Shown: piece by piece, positions 10,425-19,895 of the stretch
How the letters are laid out: the number at the start of each line of letters is the position of its first letter
Numbering within the stretch: the stretch's first letter is position 1
NCBI RefSeq assembly: GCF_001458695.1
Contig: NZ_LN885086.1
Coordinates: 2,940,001 to 2,972,000, forward strand
DNA: 32,000 nt
Direction of reading: 5' to 3'
Source: Candidatus Nitrospira inopinata
GTDB taxonomy: Bacteria; Nitrospirota; Nitrospiria; Nitrospirales; Nitrospiraceae
The notes under the pieces: generated by a model
What the model was told of the DNA's origin: nothing
The model's input: the letters and a program-made list of their open reading frames with translations, nothing else
The model's database searches: none
Position numbers and translations under genes: made by a program

Positions 10425-11209
10425 GACCGCCCTGCCTGTAGCTGTCCTAGCCGCCGTTCGACCGACACCACCAGCCGCCCAAGGCTCTCGAGATAGCGAT
10501 CCATCAAGCGCGGCACCTCCAGCCGCCCCGGCGAGCTATGACCGCGCTTAAGCGACCAGGCCTCCCGCAAGGCCGCGAGATCGGTCTCGCAACAGACTTC
10601 CAGATCCTTGAGCAGCGATTCCCCGTCAAACAGAGCCGGTCTGTCCAAGAGCCGTTGCACGCCCCGCAGCACCGGCAACAAGGACGTAATCGACAAGCTC
10701 AGCAGAATCGTCATGGCCTCGCCTGTCGCCTCTCCTTCAACCAATCGCTGCCGGAGGCGTACCAGGTTCCCCCGCAGCCCCTGCAAGACTTCACCGGCCA
10801 GATGACGATGATCGACGACGAATCCGACGAAGGGATCCTTGCCCCACAACAGGCGATGACAGTCGCGAATGTCCTGGCACTCAAGCGGAAAGACCGCCGC
10901 CGAGGCTCGGAGATCGTCGCTGGTGAGGAACAACGGCGCCACGATCAGTTCCTTGCCCCATTTCGCGTGCAGCGGGACGTACGGCTTCAAGACGGACAAC
11001 TCGCAGGACGACACGACCAGCAGAATGTTCAGATTCGACCGTCCCGGCAGGAAGTCTCTCCGCGCGGCGCTTCCGTAGAGCAGCACGGCTTCCAACCGAT
11101 CGCCGAAGGCCTTGATCACGTCTTGCACGTAGGAACGCAACAGTTTGTACGTTCCTTCCGGCAACCCGTCGATGCTCCAATGCGGAATCGACATCGCTTC
11201 ACCCGACAT
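10421..11209 (-). CDS. Nucleotidyltransferase-fold protein with substituted catalytic motif
   Basis: LLYGSAARRDFLPGRSNLNILLVV aligns to the Pol-beta/MNT signature GS-x(9-13)-SDxDLLVV, but reads SNLN. Candidate starts are ATG 11233, 11209 and 11194; I chose 11209. Confidence 0.65.
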   Translation of the reverse strand: MSGEAMSIPHWSIDGLPEGTYKLLRSYVQDVIKAFGDRLEAVLLYGSAARRDFLPGRSNLNILLVVSSCELSVLKPYVPLHAKWGKELIVAPLFLTSDDLRASAAVFPLECQDIRDCHRLLWGKDPFVGFVVDHRHLAGEVLQGLRGNLVRLRQRLVEGEATGEAMTILLSLSITSLLPVLRGVQRLLDRPALFDGESLLKDLEVCCETDLAALREAWSLKRGHSSPGRLEVPRLMDRYLESLGRLVVSVERRLGQLQAGRS

Positions 11210-12473
11210 CGTGGACCGCCCTGTCGCAGGCATGGGGGTCGGGCAGGAACCCCGCCGCCATGAAGCGATCAACCAGGCCGAACGGCGGCCTGCTCCGCAA
11301 CCCCGCCGTCGTGGACAAGATGCGATACCGAAGCCGCGTGTTCCGGTCCAAGGTTTTGAACACGCGATCCCGCAAAAACCCGATGACGGGATTGCCCGTG
11401 TTCCAAAAGAACACCTCCTCGTCGGCGAGCCGCTGCAACATGGTGACCTGCGGCCGGCGCAGGCGCTCGAATTGCTTCAAACGTTCCGCCGAGCAATCGT
11501 TCGCCGCCAGACAGTCGGGCAACAGATCGGCGAGCGTGACCGCGTCCACCATCGCCTGCATTCGCCCTTGCGACGCATGCGGATTCATCGCATGGGCGGC
11601 GTCGCCGATCAGCACCGCGCCGTCGGCCACCCAGGTCGGGGTCCGAACCCGGCCAGTCGGTAAAAACGCGGTCTGACTCCAATCCGTCAATCCTCGAAAG
11701 ATCGGTTCATCGGGCGGACTGATGGCCGTCCAAGCCCGTTGCAACGAAGGGATGCCTTGAGCCTTGACGCGGTCGTAAGAACCGGCGTCGATCATGTAGA
11801 GCAGAAACACGCGGCGCCCCGCCGCCGGAAACAGCGCGAGAATCGTGCGCTTGCCCACAAAATACTTGGCTTCGTCGATCGGAACAGGCGCTTCGATGAT
11901 GGCGATCAGATAGCCTTGGGGATAGAGATGTACGTCGGCGGGAATGCCCAAGGACTCCCGAACTTTTGAAAAGGCGCCATCGGCGCCGACCACCGCCTTG
12001 GCCCGCACCATGATCTCTTCGTCTTCCCTTTTGGCCGTCAGGCCGACGACTCGTCCGTTCTCTCGCAACAGACTGACGAAGGACGTTCCATACCACAGCG
12101 TCACGGCCGGTTGCGCGTGAATCGCGTCGAGGATGGCATGGTGCGCCACGTTGGGCAACGTCACCACCGCCCGATTGTAGGGAGGCGGCAAGTCGCCGTA
12201 GTCCACCGTGCAGAGCCGTTCGCCGCCCGCCCGACAAAAATGAAACAGCCGAACCGGCCGGACCGAGTCGGCTGGCAACTTATGCAACAATCCAAGCCGA
12301 TCGAGCACCCGCTGTCCGTTGGGTTGAAGAATCTCCCCGCGCAAGCCGCGAGGCGGCCCGGCGGCCTGCTCCAGCACGATCGTTTTGATCCCCTTGTGAG
12401 CCAAGGCCAGGGCCAAGACCGCCCCGCCCCCCCCTGCGCCCACCACCGCCACGTCCGCTTCTTCCTTTCTCAC
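11199..12473 (-). CDS. FAD-dependent monooxygenase/oxidoreductase (UbiH/PHBH fold)
   Basis: The dinucleotide motif VAVVGAGGGGAVLALALAHKG and the motif LIGDAAHAMNPHASQG are present. The preferred start is GTG 12471-12473, with GAGG 6 nt upstream and 11 nt after the PLD stop. The ORF-track start at 12527 (also GTG) would overlap the PLD gene by 43 nt. Confidence 0.85.
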   Translation of the reverse strand: MRKEEADVAVVGAGGGGAVLALALAHKGIKTIVLEQAAGPPRGLRGEILQPNGQRVLDRLGLLHKLPADSVRPVRLFHFCRAGGERLCTVDYGDLPPPYNRAVVTLPNVAHHAILDAIHAQPAVTLWYGTSFVSLLRENGRVVGLTAKREDEEIMVRAKAVVGADGAFSKVRESLGIPADVHLYPQGYLIAIIEAPVPIDEAKYFVGKRTILALFPAAGRRVFLLYMIDAGSYDRVKAQGIPSLQRAWTAISPPDEPIFRGLTDWSQTAFLPTGRVRTPTWVADGAVLIGDAAHAMNPHASQGRMQAMVDAVTLADLLPDCLAANDCSAERLKQFERLRRPQVTMLQRLADEEVFFWNTGNPVIGFLRDRVFKTLDRNTRLRYRILSTTAGLRSRPPFGLVDRFMAAGFLPDPHACDRAVHDVG

Positions 12474-12484
12474 CTCAGGCCTCG

Positions 12485-13057
12485 CTACGAGGGGTTCCAA
12501 TCCTCGAATCTGGCTTGATCGCGCCACATCGAAAGAAATTTGTCGCGCGCCTTGACCGAGAGATCCCGATCCCGAATGACGTCAAGCCGTTCATCATTAT
12601 ATCGATTGCCGCTGCCCGTATGATTCATCGAGCCGTTCATATTGATCTGGTCGTCGATGACCACTTGCTTCAGATGCATGAGTCCATCATGCCGGTTGAC
12701 CTTGACGGGAACACCAGCCTCCCGCAGAGCGGTCATCGCCGCCCGCTGCTTGGGATCGCTCAGACGTTGACGGTCCGTGATGATTCGCACGTCCACCCCC
12801 TGCTTATGCGCGGCGAGCAGAGCCTTGACCGCGGGGGGAAAGGTCATCCCATACACCGCCACATAAATATACTGCGTCGCCCGCTCGTAAATCCCCACCG
12901 CCCGTTGCAACGGCCTGTCTTCCGGCGCGTACCACACCTCTACCGAAGAGGCCGAAACTTCCCCGGCCGATGTTGTCGAGACGCAGCCTGCCGGCCATCC
13001 GAGGATGGCGACGCAACATCCGATCCAGAAGAAAACGCACAGCCGTAATCCGTTCAT
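12485..13057 (-). CDS. Secreted phospholipase D-family protein, single HKD motif (Nuc-like endonuclease type)
   Basis: N-terminal signal sequence. The motif HLKQVVIDDQINMNGSMN matches HxK-x4-D-x6-GSxN. 190 aa, the size of the single-HKD Nuc family. Confidence 0.85.
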   Translation of the reverse strand: MNGLRLCVFFWIGCCVAILGWPAGCVSTTSAGEVSASSVEVWYAPEDRPLQRAVGIYERATQYIYVAVYGMTFPPAVKALLAAHKQGVDVRIITDRQRLSDPKQRAAMTALREAGVPVKVNRHDGLMHLKQVVIDDQINMNGSMNHTGSGNRYNDERLDVIRDRDLSVKARDKFLSMWRDQARFEDWNPS

Positions 13058-13431
13058 TCAAGATCAAAGAGCGCGCGAAACTGCTCCTCCGACGCCTCCC
13101 AGGCCTCGGGCGCATGCGTCTGAAGCCATCGTCCAAGAAATTGTTTCTGCTCCGGCGTCAGCATCTGCTTGATCTGGTGAGACCGTCCTTGAAGCGGCTG
13201 AAGAAACCCCACGCGTTTCGCCACGTCCAAGGCGGCGGTTCGGACATAGACATTGGTGAACGCCGAGGGTTTATCCTCCTCGCCTTCGCCCTGCACCCAG
13301 ACGGACAAAAACCGCTCGAGCGTCAGGCCGGCGCTATCCATCGCCGGTTCGGTATCATGAAATAGCTCGTTCTCCGATTCCACCATCGGCGCGCCGTCGC
13401 CGACCCGAAAGAGAAAATTCTTTTTCCACAT
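13054..13431 (-). CDS. hypothetical small acidic protein, translationally coupled to the PLD gene
   Basis: The stop overlaps the PLD ATG (ATGA 13054-13057). From ATG 13431 the product is 125 aa with about 20 D/E versus 13 K/R. The upstream 70 codons of the ORF-track ORF use rare codons (tta, ata, cta) and lower GC3, so I exclude them. No family recognised. Confidence 0.5.
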   Translation of the reverse strand: MWKKNFLFRVGDGAPMVESENELFHDTEPAMDSAGLTLERFLSVWVQGEGEEDKPSAFTNVYVRTAALDVAKRVGFLQPLQGRSHQIKQMLTPEQKQFLGRWLQTHAPEAWEASEEQFRALFDLE

Positions 13432-13722
13432 AAGGAATGGCTCCGGAGCTTCTAATATCAAAACCCATTTCTTGCCGGAGGCTAGTCCCGGACTTCTCAC
13501 CCACGGACAAAAGAAGCTGGCATAGTGGAGAGGAAGTCTTGCAAAGTCAAGCAACGCACCGGACCGCAGTAAAGAACTCGCCTCTTTCCCCTTCGCACAC
13601 GCGCAACCGGATTCCAGCTTCCGAAGGATGTCGCTTTGCATTCTCCTCCCGTCCCGAAAACCGGTCGGCCGGTCTCACGCTTCAACAATGGCCCTCGGGC
13701 ACTCCACTCAAAGACCATCACC

Positions 13723-13752
13723 TTGACAACCGTGGAGCCCCTTTGTTAGGTT
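13723..13752 (+). promoter_or_regulatory. possible promoter of the sulfur-carrier operon
   Basis: A perfect -35 TTGACA at 13723-13728, then 17-18 nt to a weak -10 (TTAGGT/TAGGTT, 13746-13752). It lies about 40 nt upstream of ATG 13792. Confidence 0.25.
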
Positions 13753-13791
13753 GGCAAAATCCCTAATCTCTAGGCCAACTTGGGAGCATTC

Positions 13792-13992
13792 ATGCAGGTC
13801 AAAATCAATGGAAAAATCGAGGACGTGTCGAGCGGAACCCTCCTGGATTTGCTCAAAAGCAAGCAGATCGAACCGCAGATGGTCGTGGTCGAGGTGAACG
13901 ACAAAGTCGTGGATCGCGACCGCCTGGCGACGACTCCCGTCTCCGATGGCGATCAGATCGAGTTCTTGTTCTACATGGGAGGCGGTCGATGA
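13792..13992 (+). CDS. thiS: ThiS-family ubiquitin-like sulfur carrier protein, C-terminus ...YMGGGR
   Basis: MQVKINGK...LLDLL...VVVEVNDKVVDRD...VSDGDQIEFLFYMGGGR. GGGAG lies 6 nt before ATG 13792; the ORF-track TTG 13780 is less likely. The stop overlaps the next ATG (ATGA 13989-13992). Confidence 0.85.
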   Translation: MQVKINGKIEDVSSGTLLDLLKSKQIEPQMVVVEVNDKVVDRDRLATTPVSDGDQIEFLFYMGGGR

Positions 13993-14918
13993 TCTCCGAT
14001 CTTCACAAAGACATCACCGAGCTGATCGGTCGGACCCCGCTTGTTCGGCTGAACAGACTCTCGAAGCTCGACTCCGCGACAGTCTACGGCAAGGTTGAAT
14101 TTTTCAACCCCGCCGGCAGCGTCAAGGATCGGATCTGCCTCAACATGATCAACGAGGCGGAGCGCCAAGGGAAGCTCAAACCCGGCGGGACGATCATCGA
14201 GCCGACCAGCGGCAACACCGGTATCGGACTCGCCATGATCGCGGCGGTCCGCGGTTATAAGCTGATCCTCGTCATGCCGGAAAGCATGAGCATGGAGCGG
14301 GCCAGTCTGCTGTCATCCTATGGCGCCCAACTTGTCTTGACGCCGGCGTGGGAAGGCATGAAAGGCTCCATTAAAGAGGCGGAGAGTATCTTGGCCCAGA
14401 ATCCGTCGTATTTCATGCCGGATCAGTTTTCAAACCCGGCCAATCCGGCGATGCATCGCTTGACGACGGCGGTGGAAATTTGGGATGCGTTGGACGGGAA
14501 GATCGACGCCTTCGTCGCCGCCGTCGGAACGGGCGGAACGATTACCGGATGCGGCGAGGTGTTCAAAGAAAAAAACCCGAGCATCCAGGTCATCGCCGTG
14601 GAGCCGGCCACTTCCCCTGTATTATCAGGGGGAGATCCCGGCCCGCACAAAATTCAAGGAATCGGCGCCGGTTTTATTCCCAAGGTGTTGAACCGTAAGA
14701 TCCTGGACCGCGTCATCACGGTCACCGACGACGAGGCCTATCAAACGGCCAAGCTGCTGGCAAAGAAGGAAGGCCTCCTGGTCGGCATTTCGGCCGGCGC
14801 CAACGTCTTTGCCGCCCAGAAAGTCGCCGACGAATTGGGACCGGGTAAAAACGTGGTGACCATTCTCTGCGACACGGGCGAACGGTACATCAGCATCGAG
14901 AAATACTTTAACATTTAG
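13989..14918 (+). CDS. cysK: Cysteine synthase (CysK/CysM family, PLP-dependent)
   Basis: 309 aa. PLP-lysine motif NPAGSVKDR, TSGNTGIGLA, GTGGTITG, and PGPHKIQGIGAGFIP. Collinear with Bacillus-type CysK as I remember it. Confidence 0.9.
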   Translation: MISDLHKDITELIGRTPLVRLNRLSKLDSATVYGKVEFFNPAGSVKDRICLNMINEAERQGKLKPGGTIIEPTSGNTGIGLAMIAAVRGYKLILVMPESMSMERASLLSSYGAQLVLTPAWEGMKGSIKEAESILAQNPSYFMPDQFSNPANPAMHRLTTAVEIWDALDGKIDAFVAAVGTGGTITGCGEVFKEKNPSIQVIAVEPATSPVLSGGDPGPHKIQGIGAGFIPKVLNRKILDRVITVTDDEAYQTAKLLAKKEGLLVGISAGANVFAAQKVADELGPGKNVVTILCDTGERYISIEKYFNI

Positions 14919-14998
14919 TCGGCCGCGTGCGGCACTCCCGCGGATCTGAGCCTTGAACGTCGAGGGCACACCGCGTTTCAGCGGAAACAGGCCATTTT

Positions 14999-15811
14999 AT
15001 GGATTTCACCGAAGAGCAGATCAATCGCTATAGCCGGCATATCCTGTTGCCCGAGGTCGGCGGGAAAGGGCAAAAGAAAATCGCCAAGGCCAAGGTCTTG
15101 CTCGTCGGCGCGGGAGGATTGGGCTCCCCGGCCGCCCTCTACCTGGCCGCCGCCGGAATCGGCCGAATCGGGCTGATCGACAGCGACGTCGTCGATTTGA
15201 CCAACCTTCAACGCCAAATTCTCCATCACACGCCGGACGTGGGTCGCCCCAAGGTCCTGTCGGGAAAAGAAAAGATCCTGGCGTTGAATCCCGACGTCGC
15301 CGTCTCGACCTATGAAGAACGGCTGACGGCGGGAAACGCCTTGAAGATCTTCGAGGATTACGACGTCATCATCGACGGCGTCGACAATTTCACGGCCAAA
15401 TTTCTGATCAACGACGCCTGTTTCTTCGCCGACAAACCGCTGATCCACGGAGGCATTCTGCGGTTCGACGGGCGGGTGACGACGATCGTCCCTAAACAAT
15501 CGGCCTGTTACCGCTGCGTATTCAAGGCGCCGCCGCCGCCCGGCCTGGTGGCGTCGTGTCAGGAGGCGGGCGTCATCGGCGTGCTGGCCGGCATCATCGG
15601 CACGATCCAGGCGACGGAGGCCTTGAAACTCATCCTGGGAATCGGACGGCCGTTGACCAACCGCCTGCTTGATTTCGACGCGAGAAAAACGCAGTTTAGG
15701 GAAATCAAGGTCCGCCGCAATCCCGATTGCGCCTTATGCGGCGAGCATCCTACAATCACCCAGTTGTTCGACGATGGAGATCCCTATGCCGGCTGCGCGG
15801 TGCGTCCGTAA
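14999..15811 (+). CDS. ThiF/MoeB/HesA-family E1-like adenylyltransferase (no rhodanese domain), copy 1
   Basis: YSRHILLPEVGGKGQKKI, the nucleotide loop LLVGAGGLGSPAALYLAAAGIG, DxDxVxxSNLQRQ, and zinc CxxC pairs CYRC and CALC; 270 aa. Confidence 0.9.
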   Translation: MDFTEEQINRYSRHILLPEVGGKGQKKIAKAKVLLVGAGGLGSPAALYLAAAGIGRIGLIDSDVVDLTNLQRQILHHTPDVGRPKVLSGKEKILALNPDVAVSTYEERLTAGNALKIFEDYDVIIDGVDNFTAKFLINDACFFADKPLIHGGILRFDGRVTTIVPKQSACYRCVFKAPPPPGLVASCQEAGVIGVLAGIIGTIQATEALKLILGIGRPLTNRLLDFDARKTQFREIKVRRNPDCALCGEHPTITQLFDDGDPYAGCAVRP

Positions 15812-15838
15812 CGGCCGATTGCCGAAGGTGGTGCAACC

Positions 15839-17089
15839 ATGAGCAAGATGAAAGCGTTGGTCTGCCGGGAATGCGGAAAAGAGTACCCGACCAAGGCGAT
15901 CCATGTCTGCGAGATGTGCTTCGGTCCCCTCGAAGTGAAATACAACTACGACGAGATCAAGAAAGTCGTCTCCCGCAAGACCATCGAAAACGGCCCCCAC
16001 AGCATGTGGCGGTATCTCGATCTGCTGCCGGTGGAAGGGACGAACCTCGTCGGCCCTCACGCCGGGTTCACCCCCCTGGTGCGGGCCAAGAATCTCGGCG
16101 CCTACCTGGGATTGGATGAGCTTTACATCAAGAACGACACGGTCAATCATCCGACCCTGTCTTTCAAGGACCGCGTGGTCGCGGTGGCCTTGACCCGCGC
16201 CCGCGAGCTGGGTTTCGAAACCGTCGCCTGCGCCTCGACCGGCAACCTGGCCAATTCGGTGGCGGCGCACGCGGCATCTGCCAATCTCCGATGCTACGTG
16301 TTCATCCCCGGCGATCTTGAGGCAGCCAAGGTGCTTGGCAACTTGATCTATCGGCCCCACGTCGTCGAGGTGGAAGGCAATTACGACGATGTCAACCGGC
16401 TGTGCAGCGAGATCGCCGGCGAACACGGATGGGCTTTCGTGAACATCAACATCCGTCCCTACTATGCTGAGGGATCCAAGACGCTGGCCTTTGAAACCGT
16501 GGAACAGCTCGGATGGAGGACGCCGGATCAGGTCGTCGTGCCGATGGCGTCCGGGTCGCTGCTGACGAAAATCTGGAAGGGCTTGCACGAAATGAAGCAC
16601 GTGGGCCTCATCGATGAGGTTCGCACCAAGATCAATGGAGCCCAGGCCGAAGGCTGCTCTCCGATCGCCACGGCGTTCAAGGCGGGTCGCGACTTCTTCA
16701 AACCGGTGAAACCCAAGACCATCGCCAAGTCCCTGGCCATCGGCAATCCGGCGGACGGCTATTATGCCCTCAAGGCCACGGCTGAGAGCAGGGGCGCCAT
16801 GGACATGGTCACCGACGACGAGGTAGTGGAAGGGATCCAACTGCTGGCCCAGACCGAAGGGATCTTTGCGGAAACGGCCGGCGGCGTCACGATCGGGGTC
16901 CTGAAAAAACTCGCCAAGCAAGGGATCATCGGCAAGAAGGATGTGACGGTCGCCTATATTACCGGCAACGGGCTCAAAACGCAGGAAGCGGTCATCGACG
17001 CCGTCGGCCGGCCGACCCGTATTCAGCCGAGCCTGGTGGCCTTCGAGAAAACCTTTCAATTGAGAAAAACCGACGGTGAGAACCCATGA
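15839..17089 (+). CDS. thrC: Threonine synthase-family PLP enzyme with N-terminal Zn-ribbon (ThrC or MetM-like homocysteine synthase)
   Basis: CRECG...CEMC ribbon, PLP lysine motif PTLSFKDR, 416 aa. AAGGTGG SD before ATG 15839. The stop overlaps the carrier gene's start (ATGA 17086-17089). Confidence 0.85.
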
Positions 17090-17358
17090 TTAAAGTCCGC
17101 ATTCCGACTCCGCTGAGACCCTTGACGAAGAACCAAGGCGAAATCGACGTCGCCGCCACCTCCATTGAGGATCTGGTCAACAATCTGGAATCCGCCTATC
17201 CCGGCATCAAAGCGCGCCTCTGCGACGACACCGGGGAATTGCGACGGTTCGTCAACATCTACGTCAACGAAGAAGACATCCGTTTTCTCAAGGGCAAGGA
17301 CACCGCCTTGAAAACCGGCGACGAAGTCTCCATCGTGCCGGCCATCGCGGGAGGATAG
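17086..17358 (+). CDS. cysO: CysO/MoaD-type ubiquitin-like sulfur carrier protein ending in AIAGG
   Basis: [17 protein letters not shown]...[14 protein letters not shown]...[19 protein letters not shown]...[13 protein letters not shown]. This closely parallels M. tuberculosis CysO as I remember it ([14 protein letters not shown]...PAVAGG). Confidence 0.85.
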
Positions 17359-17360
17359 CC

Positions 17361-17600
17361 ATGACCAGCCTGAGATTCCACATCCGATTTCCGGAGGACA
17401 AGATCAAGGAGCCGATCATTTATCAAATCGGGCACGAATACAATGTCGTGACGAACGTCCGCCGTGCCGACGTGCGCGAGACGACCGGCTGGATGGATTT
17501 GGAGTTAAGCGGCGACGTCGCCGAGATCGAGCGCGCCGTCGCCGGTCTGCGAGACAAAGGCGTCATCGTGGATCCGATCGAATTAAACGTCGTGGAATGA
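17361..17600 (+). CDS. Stand-alone NIL domain protein
   Basis: 79 aa. FPEDKIKEPIIYQIGHEYNVVTNVRRADVRETTGWMDLELSGDVAEIERAVAGLRDKGV resembles the NIL (MetN C-terminal, ferredoxin-like) domain. It starts 2 nt after the cysO stop. Confidence 0.7.
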   Translation: MTSLRFHIRFPEDKIKEPIIYQIGHEYNVVTNVRRADVRETTGWMDLELSGDVAEIERAVAGLRDKGVIVDPIELNVVE

Positions 17601-17666
17601 GCGGAGAACATGAACCGCGCATAGGAAACATCGTCTGAAAAGACAACAATCCGAGCAATCGAAACC

Positions 17667-18470
17667 ATGCAACTGACTGAATCGGAAATTCAACGGTACA
17701 GCCGTCATATCATTCTCCAAGACGTCGGAGGCAAGGGGCAGCTCAAGCTCAAACGCGCCAAGGTGCTGCTGATCGGCGCGGGGGGGCTGGGATCTCCCGC
17801 CAGCCTTTATCTCGCGGCCGCCGGCATCGGAACCATCGGCCTCGTGGATGGCGACGTCGTGGATCTGTCGAATTTACAACGGCAGATCATGCACTCGACC
17901 GCGACCCTCGGACAGCCCAAGGTCGAGTCCGGCAAGAAGACGCTGTCGGCCATCAATTCGGAGATCACCGTCAACGCCTACCACCAACTGGTGGATGCCG
18001 ACAACATTCTTCCTCTCATCTCGCACTACGACGTGGTGCTCGACGGTTCCGACAACTTCTCGACCCGGTTCTTGGTCAATGACGCCTGTTTCTTCGCCAA
18101 GAAAACCCTGATCTCGGCCAGCATGTTCCGATTTGAAGGGCAATTGACGACGATCAAGCCTCATCAAGGATACCCCTGCTACCGATGCCTCTATCCGGAA
18201 CCGCCTCCCGCCGGATTGGTTCCCAATTGTCAGGAGGCCGGCGTGTTGGGCGTCTTGGCGGGAACGATGGGTATTTTGCAGGCCTCTGAAGCGATCAAGG
18301 AGATTCTGAGCATCGGTGAAACCCTGGCCGACAAACTGTTGATCTACGACGCCCTTGAGATGAAGTTCCGCAAAGTCGGGCGTCCCAAAGATCCGGCTTG
18401 CCCTCTCTGCGGGCCGAATCCGACGATCAAAGATCTCCGCATGGATTACACCGTGACCTGCACCATTTGA
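17667..18470 (+). CDS. ThiF/MoeB/HesA-family E1-like adenylyltransferase (no rhodanese domain), copy 2
   Basis: Paralog of 14999-15811, roughly 55-60% identical by eye: YSRHIILQDVGGKGQLKL, LLIGAGGLGSPASLYLAAAGIG, and CxxC pairs CYRC and CPLC; 267 aa. Confidence 0.9.
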   Translation: MQLTESEIQRYSRHIILQDVGGKGQLKLKRAKVLLIGAGGLGSPASLYLAAAGIGTIGLVDGDVVDLSNLQRQIMHSTATLGQPKVESGKKTLSAINSEITVNAYHQLVDADNILPLISHYDVVLDGSDNFSTRFLVNDACFFAKKTLISASMFRFEGQLTTIKPHQGYPCYRCLYPEPPPAGLVPNCQEAGVLGVLAGTMGILQASEAIKEILSIGETLADKLLIYDALEMKFRKVGRPKDPACPLCGPNPTIKDLRMDYTVTCTI

Positions 18471-18523
18471 CCCCCATCGAAACACCACGTGAAGCATAAG
18501 TTGAAAACAGAAAGCATCTCGCC

Positions 18524-19033
18524 GTGACGGAACTGGTCATCCCTCGCGCCATCCTTGAAGACATGGTCGCTCACGCGAGGGAACTCGCGCCTCACGAGTG
18601 TTGCGGGCTCCTGGCCGGAACCGACGGCGCGGTCAGCCGAGCCTACCGCATCACGAACATCGTCGCGATGGAGGGGGCGCAGCATCTTTCCTCGTTCGAT
18701 ACCGCCAAAGTCGCTCATTTGGAACGGCTCACGCCGGCTGAACGGGCGGAAATCGCGTTCGTCATGGACATGCAGGATTTCTCCGCCGCCAAGAAAGACA
18801 TGCGCCAGCGTGGGCTCGATCTGCTGGTCGTCTATCATTCACACCCGCACGATCCTGCCCGCCCCTCCGTGACCGACATCAAGATCGCCACTGATTACGA
18901 AGAGATTTGGCCCAAGATCAACCTGCCGGTTCCCTCCTATCTGTTAATTTCCCTCATGGACGCCGAGCCGGACATCAGAAACTATTGGATCAAATCCGGG
19001 CGGGTGTCTCCCGCTCCCTTCACGATCGGATAG
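18524..19033 (+). CDS. JAMM/MPN+ (Mov34, Mec+-like) metallopeptidase
   Basis: Catalytic Glu in APHECCGLLAG and the JAMM motif YHSHPHDPARPSVTD. GTG start; 169 aa. Confidence 0.85.
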   Translation: MTELVIPRAILEDMVAHARELAPHECCGLLAGTDGAVSRAYRITNIVAMEGAQHLSSFDTAKVAHLERLTPAERAEIAFVMDMQDFSAAKKDMRQRGLDLLVVYHSHPHDPARPSVTDIKIATDYEEIWPKINLPVPSYLLISLMDAEPDIRNYWIKSGRVSPAPFTIG

Positions 19034-19121
19034 TCTCGGTTTTTGCAGTTTTCTTCTCAGCCGCCGAGTGCGATAATGGCGGCGCCGCCTATCATTCCAA
19101 TCACTCACAATGAGGAGTCGG

Positions 19122-19445
19122 ATGCGGACGGTTCTTTTCACCCTCTTCTTCGGCGTGGTTCTGGCCGGCCCCGCCCTTGCCGTCGAAAAGAGTTACTATA
19201 GCCCGGTCATTCATATCGACGTGGAGAATCACCGCATTTTGATTTCGCAACTCGGCGGCGTGTTCTACATCGACGTCCCCGAGGCCGCGCGGCCTCACAT
19301 GGAGAAGCTGCCGATTTCCGGACTGGTGGATTTCGTGGTTGAAATACAAGGCGAGAACGAAATGCCGGTGCTCAAATCATGGAAGGTCAAGTCCGGCGAA
19401 TCGACCTGCATGCACTTTAACGGAAAAGAGTGCCGGGACAAATAA
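19122..19445 (+). CDS. hypothetical exported protein
   Basis: Signal peptide MRTVLFTLFFGVVLAGPALA/VE. GAGGAG at 19112-19117 favours ATG 19122 over ATG 19110. No family recognised. Confidence 0.55.
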   Translation: MRTVLFTLFFGVVLAGPALAVEKSYYSPVIHIDVENHRILISQLGGVFYIDVPEAARPHMEKLPISGLVDFVVEIQGENEMPVLKSWKVKSGESTCMHFNGKECRDK

Positions 19446-19459
19446 CGTCACGGTCGAGG

Positions 19460-19669
19460 CTATTCCCCGCTTCCCGCCATATCATCGATGAGCGGGCGGT
19501 TGATGTCGGTGCAGCCGGGGCAGATCCGGTCGAGCAGCCCTTCGAAATCCGCAACGAAGTGTTTTGCGTCCGTCAGCCCTTCGCCGACCACCTGCGAGTA
19601 ACAAGTCTCGCAGAGCATCATGAGGCCCCGCGAGACCCCGACCGTTTTTCTCCCCGCGCTGCCCGTCAT
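19460..19669 (-). CDS. hypothetical small protein with two CxxC pairs (zinc-ribbon-like)
   Basis: 69 aa with CETC ... CPGC. Acidic, GC3-rich codons. It starts 4 nt after the upstream small ORF's stop; an internal start at MMLCETC is possible. Confidence 0.45.
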   Translation of the reverse strand: MTGSAGRKTVGVSRGLMMLCETCYSQVVGEGLTDAKHFVADFEGLLDRICPGCTDINRPLIDDMAGSGE

Positions 19670-19673
19670 GCCG

Positions 19674-19895
19674 CTAGACCGATCCCTTCTGAAGCGCCGT
19701 GAAAAAGTCTTCTCGTTCGAGATCGATCCCGCAACGCGGACACTCGTAAGGACGATCCTCGTCCGGCAGGCTCAACGGCGTGCGATCGACGCGTCCATGA
19801 CACACGTGGTAGAAACGGCCCCGCGCGTGCTCGTCGTCGAGAGGATCGCTTTCATAAATCAGCACCATGATCTCTTCCTTCTCATCGAAGGGCAT
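19674..19895 (-). CDS. hypothetical small protein with CxH ... CxxC (zinc-ribbon-like)
   Basis: 73 aa with HVCH ... CPRC. Acidic, with normal codon usage. It lies 51 nt downstream of the ABC exporter on the same strand. Confidence 0.5.
   Translation of the reverse strand: MPFDEKEEIMVLIYESDPLDDEHARGRFYHVCHGRVDRTPLSLPDEDRPYECPRCGIDLEREDFFTALQKGSV

Follow-up and report, generated by a model that had tools for sequence, protein, structure and literature searches.

What does an operon make that encodes two ubiquitin-like (Ubl) sulfur carriers, two E1-type activating enzymes, two pyridoxal 5'-phosphate (PLP)-dependent enzymes and a single JAMM peptidase? Such a block of genes lies in the genome of Candidatus Nitrospira inopinata, within the stretch of 32,000 nucleotides analyzed here and referred to as the window (RefSeq assembly GCF_001458695.1, contig NZ_LN885086.1, positions 2,940,001 to 2,972,000). 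It consists of eight co-directional open reading frames (ORFs) on the + strand at window positions 13792-19033, which encode, in this order, a ThiS-type carrier, a CysK-type cysteine synthase, a first E1 (E1a), a ThrC-family enzyme, a CysO-type carrier, a stand-alone NIL-domain protein, a second E1 (E1b), and the JAMM peptidase. A first-pass annotation made from the letters of the sequence had named eight genes of these families running in one direction. All ORFs were found where it had placed them, and its family assignments agreed with profile searches of all eight proteins against Pfam and NCBIfam, in which the bit scores were compared with the cut-offs of the models. According to motif inspection, the catalytic motifs are intact across the enzymes of the block.

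The operon most likely makes homocysteine, and probably also cysteine, through the ubiquitin-like carriers. On balance, the protein families and the gene context lead us to favor the reading that the block is a housekeeping operon for sulfur-containing amino acids, in which homocysteine would be formed via a MetM/MetO-type carrier and cysteine via a ThiS thiocarboxylate (ThiS-COSH), with the NIL protein exerting control and the JAMM peptidase acting in processing. The evidence for the two halves of this combined reading differs, and they are considered separately below.

A putative homocysteine synthase and its carrier

The ThrC-like enzyme contains the PLP lysine K110 and, in its zinc ribbon, the cysteines C9/C12/C24/C27. 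Short threonine synthases can be aligned with it only from residue ~55 on, and the zinc ribbon is therefore an addition. The 90-aa carrier encoded next to it matches CysO of Mycobacterium tuberculosis over its full length (PDB entries 3dwg_C, E = 1.4e-20, and 4n6e_B, E = 1.5e-18), with about half of the residues aligned to 3dwg_C in the HMMER alignment being identical, and it has a free GG end in 83 of 85 loci. This carrier had been labeled CysO/MoaD-like in the first-pass annotation. The CysO part of the label was borne out by the structural matches, whereas the MoaD part was not, the score with the moaD model TIGR01682 being 19.3 bits at a cut-off of 66.15; in addition, no moaE gene was present in the flanks covered by gene calls.

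The MetM/MetO route to homocysteine was described for Streptomyces albulus in 2024 (Hasebe et al., Appl Environ Microbiol 90:e01247-24). It requires an E1 of the MoeZ type and a JAMM of the Mec type, and MetM is often misannotated as threonine synthase (GapMind 2026; PMC12172450); the ThrC protein of Microcystis is 51.6% identical to MetM (PMC12172450). With respect to the predicted protein families, it is well supported that the ThrC-like/carrier pair would fit thiocarboxylate-dependent homocysteine synthesis by this route. We propose the ThrC-like enzyme as a MetM-like, thiocarboxylate-dependent homocysteine synthase.

N. moscoviensis has the same block (locus L067), and published expression data and a curated metabolic model are available for this species (PMC8407350). 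Our genome-wide points, i.e., those on thrC, thiS and the classical methionine route, rest on its published annotation and not on a scan of the genome that contains the window. In the supplements of that study, the block corresponds to NITMOv2_2396-2402, with matching masses; these seven of the eight products are listed in the transcriptome and the proteome of nitrite-grown cells, and the JAMM gene NITMOv2_2403 is not among the rows listed (PMC8407350). In the curated model, as given there, homoserine O-succinyltransferase, cystathionine gamma-synthase and cystathionine beta-lyase are all gene-less and were gap-filled, and a homoserine kinase is present (PMC8407350). The operon would most likely fill these three gene-less homocysteine steps. 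The first-pass annotation would have been undermined if the ThrC-like protein were the only threonine synthase; the annotation tables, however, contain a separate 37-kDa thrC (NITMOv2_4467) that adjoins hom (PMC8407350).

Conservation of the block in Nitrospira

A genome scan with one genome per species resulted in 80 loci, all of them from Nitrospira and including N. moscoviensis, in which the ThrC-like protein showed an identity of at least 91%. The gene order was checked by tblastn of all eight proteins against the 80 loci, as far as the contigs reach. The same eight genes occur in the same order in 80/80 species-representative loci, with locus L054 as the sole exception by insertion. The arrangement is not a chance one, and the block is a conserved unit, as the reading given in the first-pass annotation required.

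The lengths of the junctions divide the block further. The genes of the ThiS-type carrier and CysK overlap by 4 nt in 64 of 70 species and those of the ThrC-like enzyme and the CysO-type carrier by 4 nt in 79 of 80 species, and the gap between the latter carrier gene and the NIL gene is 2 nt in 76 of 80 species. E1a and the ThrC-like gene are ~22-27 nt apart in most species. The distances from cysK to E1a (up to ~200 nt) and from the NIL gene to E1b (up to ~170 nt) are variable, and that from E1b to the JAMM gene is 1 nt in 24 of 75 species and elsewhere variable, up to ~180 nt. Judged by this spacing across species, the block is composed of three tight units, namely ThiS-CysK, E1a-ThrC-like-carrier-NIL, and E1b-JAMM.

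Two loci showed irregularities. In L054, a metagenome-assembled genome (MAG), ~5.2 kb are inserted between E1b and the JAMM gene (10600-15840; a glgC-like gene, helicase pieces, an outer-membrane protein) and the C-terminus of E1b is cut off, which may reflect either a genuine rearrangement or a misassembly of the MAG. In L049, the NIL and E1b genes contain apparent frameshifts.

Related loci outside Nitrospira

Only close relatives from Nitrospira were obtained with the initial protein search and genome scan, and the distant context was reached via 50%-identity representatives and a NIL-seeded metagenome scan. In a library-wide search, full-length zinc-ribbon relatives of the ThrC-like protein were found at 36-64% identity. 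In archaea (Bathyarchaeia, Nezhaarchaeales, and others), the ThrC-like gene is followed by one for a 93-aa carrier, and in one archaeal locus (L088) the pair is located beside the genes for homoserine dehydrogenase, aspartate kinase and aspartate-semialdehyde dehydrogenase (hom/ask/asd). In Elusimicrobiota, the ThrC-like, carrier and NIL genes form a trio with no E1 or JAMM gene nearby. The NIL-seeded scan yielded 80 loci, in which the NIL gene nearly always follows a CysO-like carrier gene and the carrier gene a ThrC-like gene. Recurrent additional genes in these loci were E1-JAMM upstream, CysK directly upstream, cysC-cysH upstream (L172), and a TusA-like gene upstream (L157). A canonical short ThrC is encoded immediately downstream of NIL in ~12 metagenome loci, including L157, and the presence of two ThrC paralogs in one operon suggests different chemistry on the shared O-phosphohomoserine rather than redundancy.

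Some of the distant loci deserve a description of their own. L157 (748-4821) has the order TusA-like protein (82 aa), E1, zinc-ribbon ThrC-like enzyme, carrier (ending AIAGG+SV), NIL, and canonical short ThrC (355 aa). Directly upstream of the genes for CysK, the ThrC-like enzyme, the carrier and NIL, L172 (44-3860) contains a fragment of an APS kinase gene and a cysH-like gene for PAPS reductase, a gene order that ties the module to assimilatory sulfate reduction. L167 (988-8768) encodes an Rrf2-type regulator, a long E1 (350 aa), CysK, a Cys/Met-metabolism PLP enzyme (380 aa), the ThrC-like enzyme, NIL, and two cysteine desulfurases, with no carrier gene between the ThrC-like and NIL genes. 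The carriers of the Elusimicrobiota loci L090-L092 (e.g., L090 8298-8585) end with AIAGG followed by LRKE, LR or C, extensions after GG that make trimming necessary; no JAMM gene lies within 7 kb in these loci, and in Nitrospira, where a JAMM gene is part of the operon, the orthologous carrier ends with GG as encoded. In L089 (10150-11772), a Nezhaarchaeales MAG, a 540-aa ORF fuses an N-terminal ThiS/MoaD-like domain to a CysK-like PALP enzyme that is 33% identical to the CysK of the window; it is located 3 kb from the ThrC-like/carrier pair, and since the carrier is fused at the N-terminus, no free C-terminus is exposed.

The NIL protein

Across bacteria, the ThrC-like/carrier pair has the NIL protein as a conserved third partner, and we found no account of a stand-alone NIL protein beside such a pair in the literature searched. 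In MetN, NIL is the regulatory domain that binds methionine. Members of the family are also part of the NIL/ferredoxin subunit in the DUF39 pathway, an unrelated route to homocysteine for which methionine feedback has been proposed. The protein encoded in the window showed a weak match to the C-terminal domain of MetN2 (2qsw). It has no cysteine and therefore cannot carry a persulfide. A single-sequence AlphaFold model was poor (pLDDT 66), and a Foldseek search with it against PDB gave no significant result; the best match (probability 0.85) was MetN, to which we gave no weight.

Streptomyces metM is under the control of an S-adenosylmethionine (SAM) riboswitch (PMC12172450). Upstream of the Nitrospira operon, no Rfam match to a riboswitch or leader RNA was obtained, neither at the gathering threshold nor at E ≤ 5. 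Because the NIL family binds methionine and no SAM riboswitch is present here, unlike in the case of Streptomyces metM, the NIL protein is probably, by analogy, a methionine-sensing regulatory or adaptor subunit.

Activating enzymes and JAMM peptidase

E1a contains GAGGLG at position 37, zinc-binding CxxC motifs at 170 and 244, and Cys187, and E1b has the same motifs (the conserved cysteine being Cys187/188 in the pair); the two proteins are 57% identical. Both consist of a ThiF domain only and reach ~315-320 bits with the MoeZ model NF005902 compared to a cut-off of 647. Both pass the MoeB subfamily model PRK05690, so that an extra role in the synthesis of molybdenum cofactor (Moco) is possible. 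The JAMM motif of the peptidase is complete (E25, H105xH107x7S115xxD118), and its PDB matches were 2kks and 2kcq.

The first-pass annotation had grouped the genes into two tandem carrier/E1/PLP enzyme modules with dedicated E1s. This view was not supported in that form: the junctions define three units, related loci carry one E1 and one carrier, and a neighbor-joining tree of E1s picked out neither E1a nor E1b as the counterpart of the single E1 in the modules elsewhere and thus gave no pairing. Gene spacing would favor E1a for the CysO-type carrier and, by elimination, E1b together with the JAMM for the capped ThiS-type carrier.

The annotation of the block in N. moscoviensis suggests a different explanation, namely a mixed housekeeping cluster in which ThiS/ThiF serve thiamine synthesis, MoaD/MoeB the formation of Moco for nitrite oxidoreductase, CysK cysteine synthesis and ThrC threonine synthesis, without any transfer from carrier to amino acid. 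In the supplementary tables, genes of the block are annotated as thiS, cysK, thiF, thrC and moeB, the latter (NITMOv2_2402) being E1b, whose product was detected in the proteome (PMC8407350). Nitrospira needs Moco, the ThiS-type carrier passes the thiS equivalog model TIGR01683 just as both E1s pass PRK05690, and the two E1s may be shared with the thiamine and Moco pathways. However, the ThiS-type carrier departs from the thiamine type by its extra C-terminal residue and by the overlap of its gene with cysK, and the annotation of N. moscoviensis contains a separate thiS-thiG pair elsewhere, which serves thiamine, in addition to the hom-thrC pair (PMC8407350). The carrier encoded by gene 5 belongs to the CysO family and fails the moaD model, with no moaE nearby. 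Furthermore, JAB genes are a typical feature of Ubl operons for sulfur assimilation and are foreign to those for thiamine and Moco (Iyer et al., 2006, PMC1779556). The mixed cluster also leaves aside that JAMM and NIL genes are present, that other phyla also have the ThrC-like/carrier/NIL trio, accompanied by a canonical ThrC, and that the N. moscoviensis model otherwise has a gap at methionine synthesis. We consider this explanation improbable.

Ubl, E1 and JAB are also the minimal toolkit of ubiquitin-like protein conjugation, and a tagging role had been left open in the first-pass annotation. In such a system, which would resemble SAMP or TtuB, the carriers, E1s and JAMM would mainly tag proteins, with the PLP enzymes as their targets or as bystanders. 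TtuB and the SAMPs act as both sulfur carriers and modifiers, a dual role that would be compatible with tagging. The toolkit is present, but positive support for tagging was not obtained. Gene 5 reached 54 bits with the SAMP1 model (cut-off 60) and the E1s ~315 bits with the model of the SAMP-activating E1 UbaA (cut-off 450), i.e., all scores were below the cut-offs. The tightest genetic coupling is to PLP enzymes of amino acid metabolism, and loci elsewhere show a sulfate-assimilation context (cysH, TusA, cysteine desulfurases). A defense or conjugation system was also tried as the primary reading and rejected, as the PADLOC E1-E2 profiles gave weak matches covering the E1 half only (≤ 67 bits), the JAB match reached 25 bits, and no E2 or E1-E2 fusion was found. 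Of all explanations considered, protein tagging appears the least probable.

The ThiS-type carrier, CysK and the origin of cysteine sulfur

The ThiS-type carrier ends with YMGGG plus one variable residue, and 72 of the 73 loci with a readable C-terminus have GGG followed by R, Q or L. The variable residue after GGG suggests a cap that is removed, i.e., trimming by the JAMM peptidase. CysK contains the PLP lysine K46 and the TSGNTG loop at 73-78. It scored below the cut-offs of the models for CysM, with 298 bits for TIGR01138 (cut-off 394) and 305 bits for NF008735 (cut-off 413). Its best PDB matches were 2egu, followed by M. tuberculosis CysK1 (2q3b), and M. tuberculosis CysM was not among the best 60 PDB matches. 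In the published N. moscoviensis model, no gene other than the cysK of the block is assigned to cysteine synthase, and candidates for serine acetyltransferase also exist (PMC8407350). From sequence, we rate the chance that ThiS-COSH would serve as sulfur donor to CysK as roughly even, and the cysteine half of the thiocarboxylate route is the less certain one. Of the earlier suggestion that one locus makes both cysteine and homocysteine, the homocysteine part stood, owing to the ThrC-like/carrier pair and the gap in the N. moscoviensis model, and the cysteine part, in view of a plain CysK, can only be inferred.

Several points weigh against the combined reading. By sequence, CysK is a plain O-acetylserine sulfhydrylase A (OASS-A) whose nearest structures are sulfide-using enzymes, and serine acetyltransferase candidates are encoded elsewhere (N. 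moscoviensis); cysteine could therefore be formed from free sulfide with no need for a carrier. Related metagenome loci pair CysK and the ThrC-like module with a single carrier and a single E1. Neither E1 has a rhodanese domain, and the window encodes no sulfur donor. The junctions and the E1 tree leave each E1 without an assigned carrier, the two E1s may be shared with thiamine and Moco synthesis, and the role of the NIL protein is deduced by analogy within its family.

The strongest rival explanation is that only the ThrC-like/CysO-like/NIL unit and one E1 use a thiocarboxylate. CysK would then be sulfide-dependent, and a different sulfur transfer would be the task of the ThiS-type carrier, second E1 and JAMM; candidates are the provision of an additional donor to this homocysteine synthase, the thiolation of tRNA, and a back-up for thiamine or Moco synthesis. 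This would agree with the fact that CysK passes the cysK equivalog model and fails those for CysM, with its OASS-A-like nearest structures, with the serine acetyltransferase genes of N. moscoviensis, and with metagenome loci that have CysK beside the ThrC-like/carrier pair, one carrier, one E1, and no ThiS-type gene. Neighborhoods of ThiS and cysteine synthase have moreover been interpreted to mean that ThiS obtains its sulfur from cysteine (Iyer et al., 2006, PMC1779556). On the other hand, the 4-nt ThiS-CysK overlap is kept in most species (64/70), a dedicated thiS-thiG pair exists elsewhere in N. moscoviensis, and an acceptor enzyme, TtuA-like or other, is absent from the window. The combination of a capped GGG+X end and a JAMM gene in the same operon also mirrors the logic reported for HcyS/HcyD of Wolinella. 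We regard this restricted explanation as possible, but less probable than the combined reading, in which the ThiS-type carrier would supply sulfur to CysK.

Gene layout and sequence context

The coordinates of the block are compiled in Table 1. A scan of the upstream region (13432-13791) gave no scored promoter site, and both the promoter and the terminator scans were uninformative. No tRNA genes were found. Downstream of the JAMM gene, the ORF at 19110-19445 (+) encodes a small protein whose N-terminus resembles a signal peptide and for which there is no Pfam match. Judging from the gene order, NITMOv2_2404 seems to be its counterpart in N. moscoviensis, and this protein was detected in the proteome. 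Two small conserved ORFs, likewise without a Pfam match, follow on the opposite strand at 19460-19669 (-) and 19674-19895 (-); their products of 69 and 73 aa contain CxxC motifs.

Table 1. Genes of the block and the region preceding them (window coordinates; cut-offs are those of the respective models).
Feature	Position	Strand	Evidence and remarks
Upstream intergenic region, 360 nt	13432..13791	+	Divergent minus-strand gene; probable promoter; TTGACA at 13723, seen by eye, may be a -35 element
ThiS-type sulfur carrier, 66 aa	13792..13992	+	PF02597, 4e-11; TIGR01683, 62.6 bits (cut-off 37.45)
CysK-type cysteine synthase, O-acetylserine sulfhydrylase A-like	13989..14918	+	TIGR01139, 465 bits (cut-off 351)
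E1a, ThiF/MoeB-type adenylyltransferase, 270 aa	14999..15811	+	PF00899, 4e-86; no rhodanese domain
ThrC-family PLP enzyme, 416 aa, N-terminal CxxC..CxxC zinc ribbon	15839..17089	+	TIGR00260, 297 bits
CysO/MetO-family carrier, 90 aa, free ...AIAGG end	17086..17358	+	ThiS/MoaD family; CysO PDB match
Stand-alone NIL-domain protein, 79 aa	17361..17600	+	PF09383, 1.5e-14, 54 bits (cut-off 24)
E1b, second ThiF/MoeB-type adenylyltransferase, 267 aa	17667..18470	+	ThiF match, 1.5e-79; no rhodanese domain
JAMM/MPN+ metallopeptidase, 169 aa, GTG start	18524..19033	+	Prok-JAB PF14464, 1.9e-21

Proposed pathway and its significance

In the pathway that we propose, homoserine would be phosphorylated to O-phosphohomoserine by a kinase encoded elsewhere in the genome. 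An E1 without rhodanese domain would adenylate the Gly-Gly end of a carrier, and the acyl-adenylate would be converted to the thiocarboxylate. The sulfur could be provided by sulfide from assimilatory sulfite reduction attacking the acyl-adenylate or by a persulfide relay in trans involving IscS, TusA and stand-alone rhodaneses. According to the published expression tables, N. moscoviensis expresses genes for assimilatory sulfate reduction, IscS, TusA-like proteins and stand-alone rhodaneses (PMC8407350). The ThrC-like enzyme would then swap the phosphate of O-phosphohomoserine for the thiocarboxylate sulfur of the CysO/MetO-type carrier, yielding homocysteine. In the case of the ThiS-type carrier, the JAMM peptidase would first trim the single residue beyond GGG, the second E1 would thiocarboxylate the exposed end, and the resulting ThiS-COSH would give its sulfur to the aminoacrylate bound to CysK. 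By analogy with Mec+ and HcyD, the JAMM may also hydrolyze carrier-Cys and carrier-Hcy adducts arising from an S-to-N acyl shift. The NIL subunit would take over feedback control, for which Streptomyces uses a SAM riboswitch.

A wider version of this scheme would state that all sulfur of cysteine and methionine in Nitrospira and in the many uncultured bacteria bearing the trio passes through protein thiocarboxylates and not through free sulfide, with an own E1 for each carrier type and with NIL as a hitherto unrecognized, obligatory subunit of such homocysteine synthases, acting either as a methionine-sensing brake or as a docking adaptor. We hold this extension to be doubtful.

Members of the genus Nitrospira are the dominant nitrite oxidizers in soils, fresh water and wastewater plants, include complete ammonia oxidizers, and are hard to grow. 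The operon offers a concrete and testable route for the three gap-filled homocysteine steps of the N. moscoviensis model, and it would correct the annotations thiS, thiF, thrC and moeB that have been propagated through hundreds of genomes. With two carrier types and two paralogous E1s it is also a natural system for studying carrier specificity, and the NIL protein that travels with the ThrC-like/carrier pair in several bacterial lineages is a handle on the regulation of the pathway where a SAM riboswitch is absent. If cysteine is indeed also formed from a thiocarboxylate, the shielding of reduced sulfur from oxidation in aerobes, which was first proposed for M. tuberculosis, would extend to nitrifiers.

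Comparison with known systems

The MetM/MetO system of S. albulus resembles the Nitrospira block in having a PLP enzyme homologous to ThrC beside a small carrier of the ThiS/MoaD family, a separate true ThrC, and O-phosphohomoserine as the expected substrate, and in needing a ThiF/MoeB E1 and a Mec-type JAMM; this likeness is drawn from protein families and gene context. It differs in that Nitrospira lacks the SAM riboswitch, has the E1 and JAMM genes within the operon and a conserved third partner, NIL, that its E1s are devoid of the rhodanese domain of MoeZ, and that its carrier already ends with GG. With the CysO-CysM-Mec+/MoeZ system of M. tuberculosis, the block shares a CysO-family carrier and, at the family level, the combination of a JAMM and a PLP enzyme with cysteine synthase fold in one locus. 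In Nitrospira, however, the CysO-type carrier is coupled to the ThrC-like enzyme, the carrier beside CysK is ThiS-type, the synthase itself is CysK-type rather than an O-phosphoserine-specific CysM, and the E1s have no rhodanese domain.

The HcyS-HcyF-HcyD-MetY system of Wolinella succinogenes, reportedly described by Krishnamoorthy and Begley in 2011, is said to contain a ThiS-type carrier from which a JAMM encoded in the same operon removes the residue after Gly-Gly, and an E1 without rhodanese domain. Its sulfide reportedly comes from assimilatory sulfite reduction, and its PLP partner MetY is said to be an O-acetylhomoserine sulfhydrylase of fold type I. The ThiS-type carrier of Nitrospira with its GGG+R/Q/L cap, the JAMM in the operon, the E1s without rhodanese domain and sulfide as a likely sulfur source correspond to this system. 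In contrast, the ThiS-type carrier of Nitrospira is coupled to CysK and homocysteine would be formed by an enzyme with ThrC fold; neither the block nor the flanks included in the gene calls contain a gene of the Cys_Met_Meta_PP family (MetY type). In the DUF39 pathway (MA1821/MA1822, aspartate-semialdehyde sulfurtransferase), a NIL domain that is thought to sense methionine is likewise genetically tied to homocysteine synthesis. In Nitrospira, however, the NIL domain stands alone, without ferredoxin domain or cysteine, and its partner enzyme has the ThrC fold and is not homologous to DUF39.

Neighborhoods of Ubl, E1, JAB and cysteine synthase genes have been cataloged as classes 4c-4e (Iyer, Burroughs, and Aravind, 2006, PMC1779556). 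Like the Nitrospira block, these are sporadic sulfur-assimilation operons combining ThiS/MoaD, E1, JAB and cysteine synthase; classes 4b and 4c, however, have an E1-rhodanese fusion, whereas the Nitrospira E1s are unfused (PMC1779556). The ThrC-like enzyme, the NIL protein and the doubled set of carriers and E1s do not figure in that article, whose text does not contain the terms threonine synthase, ThrC or NIL. Protein-thiocarboxylate routes to cysteine in M. tuberculosis and to homocysteine in Wolinella and Streptomyces are already known. What is new in Nitrospira is the combination of a CysO-type carrier with a ThrC-fold enzyme, a capped ThiS-type carrier with a plain CysK, two rhodanese-less E1s, one JAMM, and a NIL partner.

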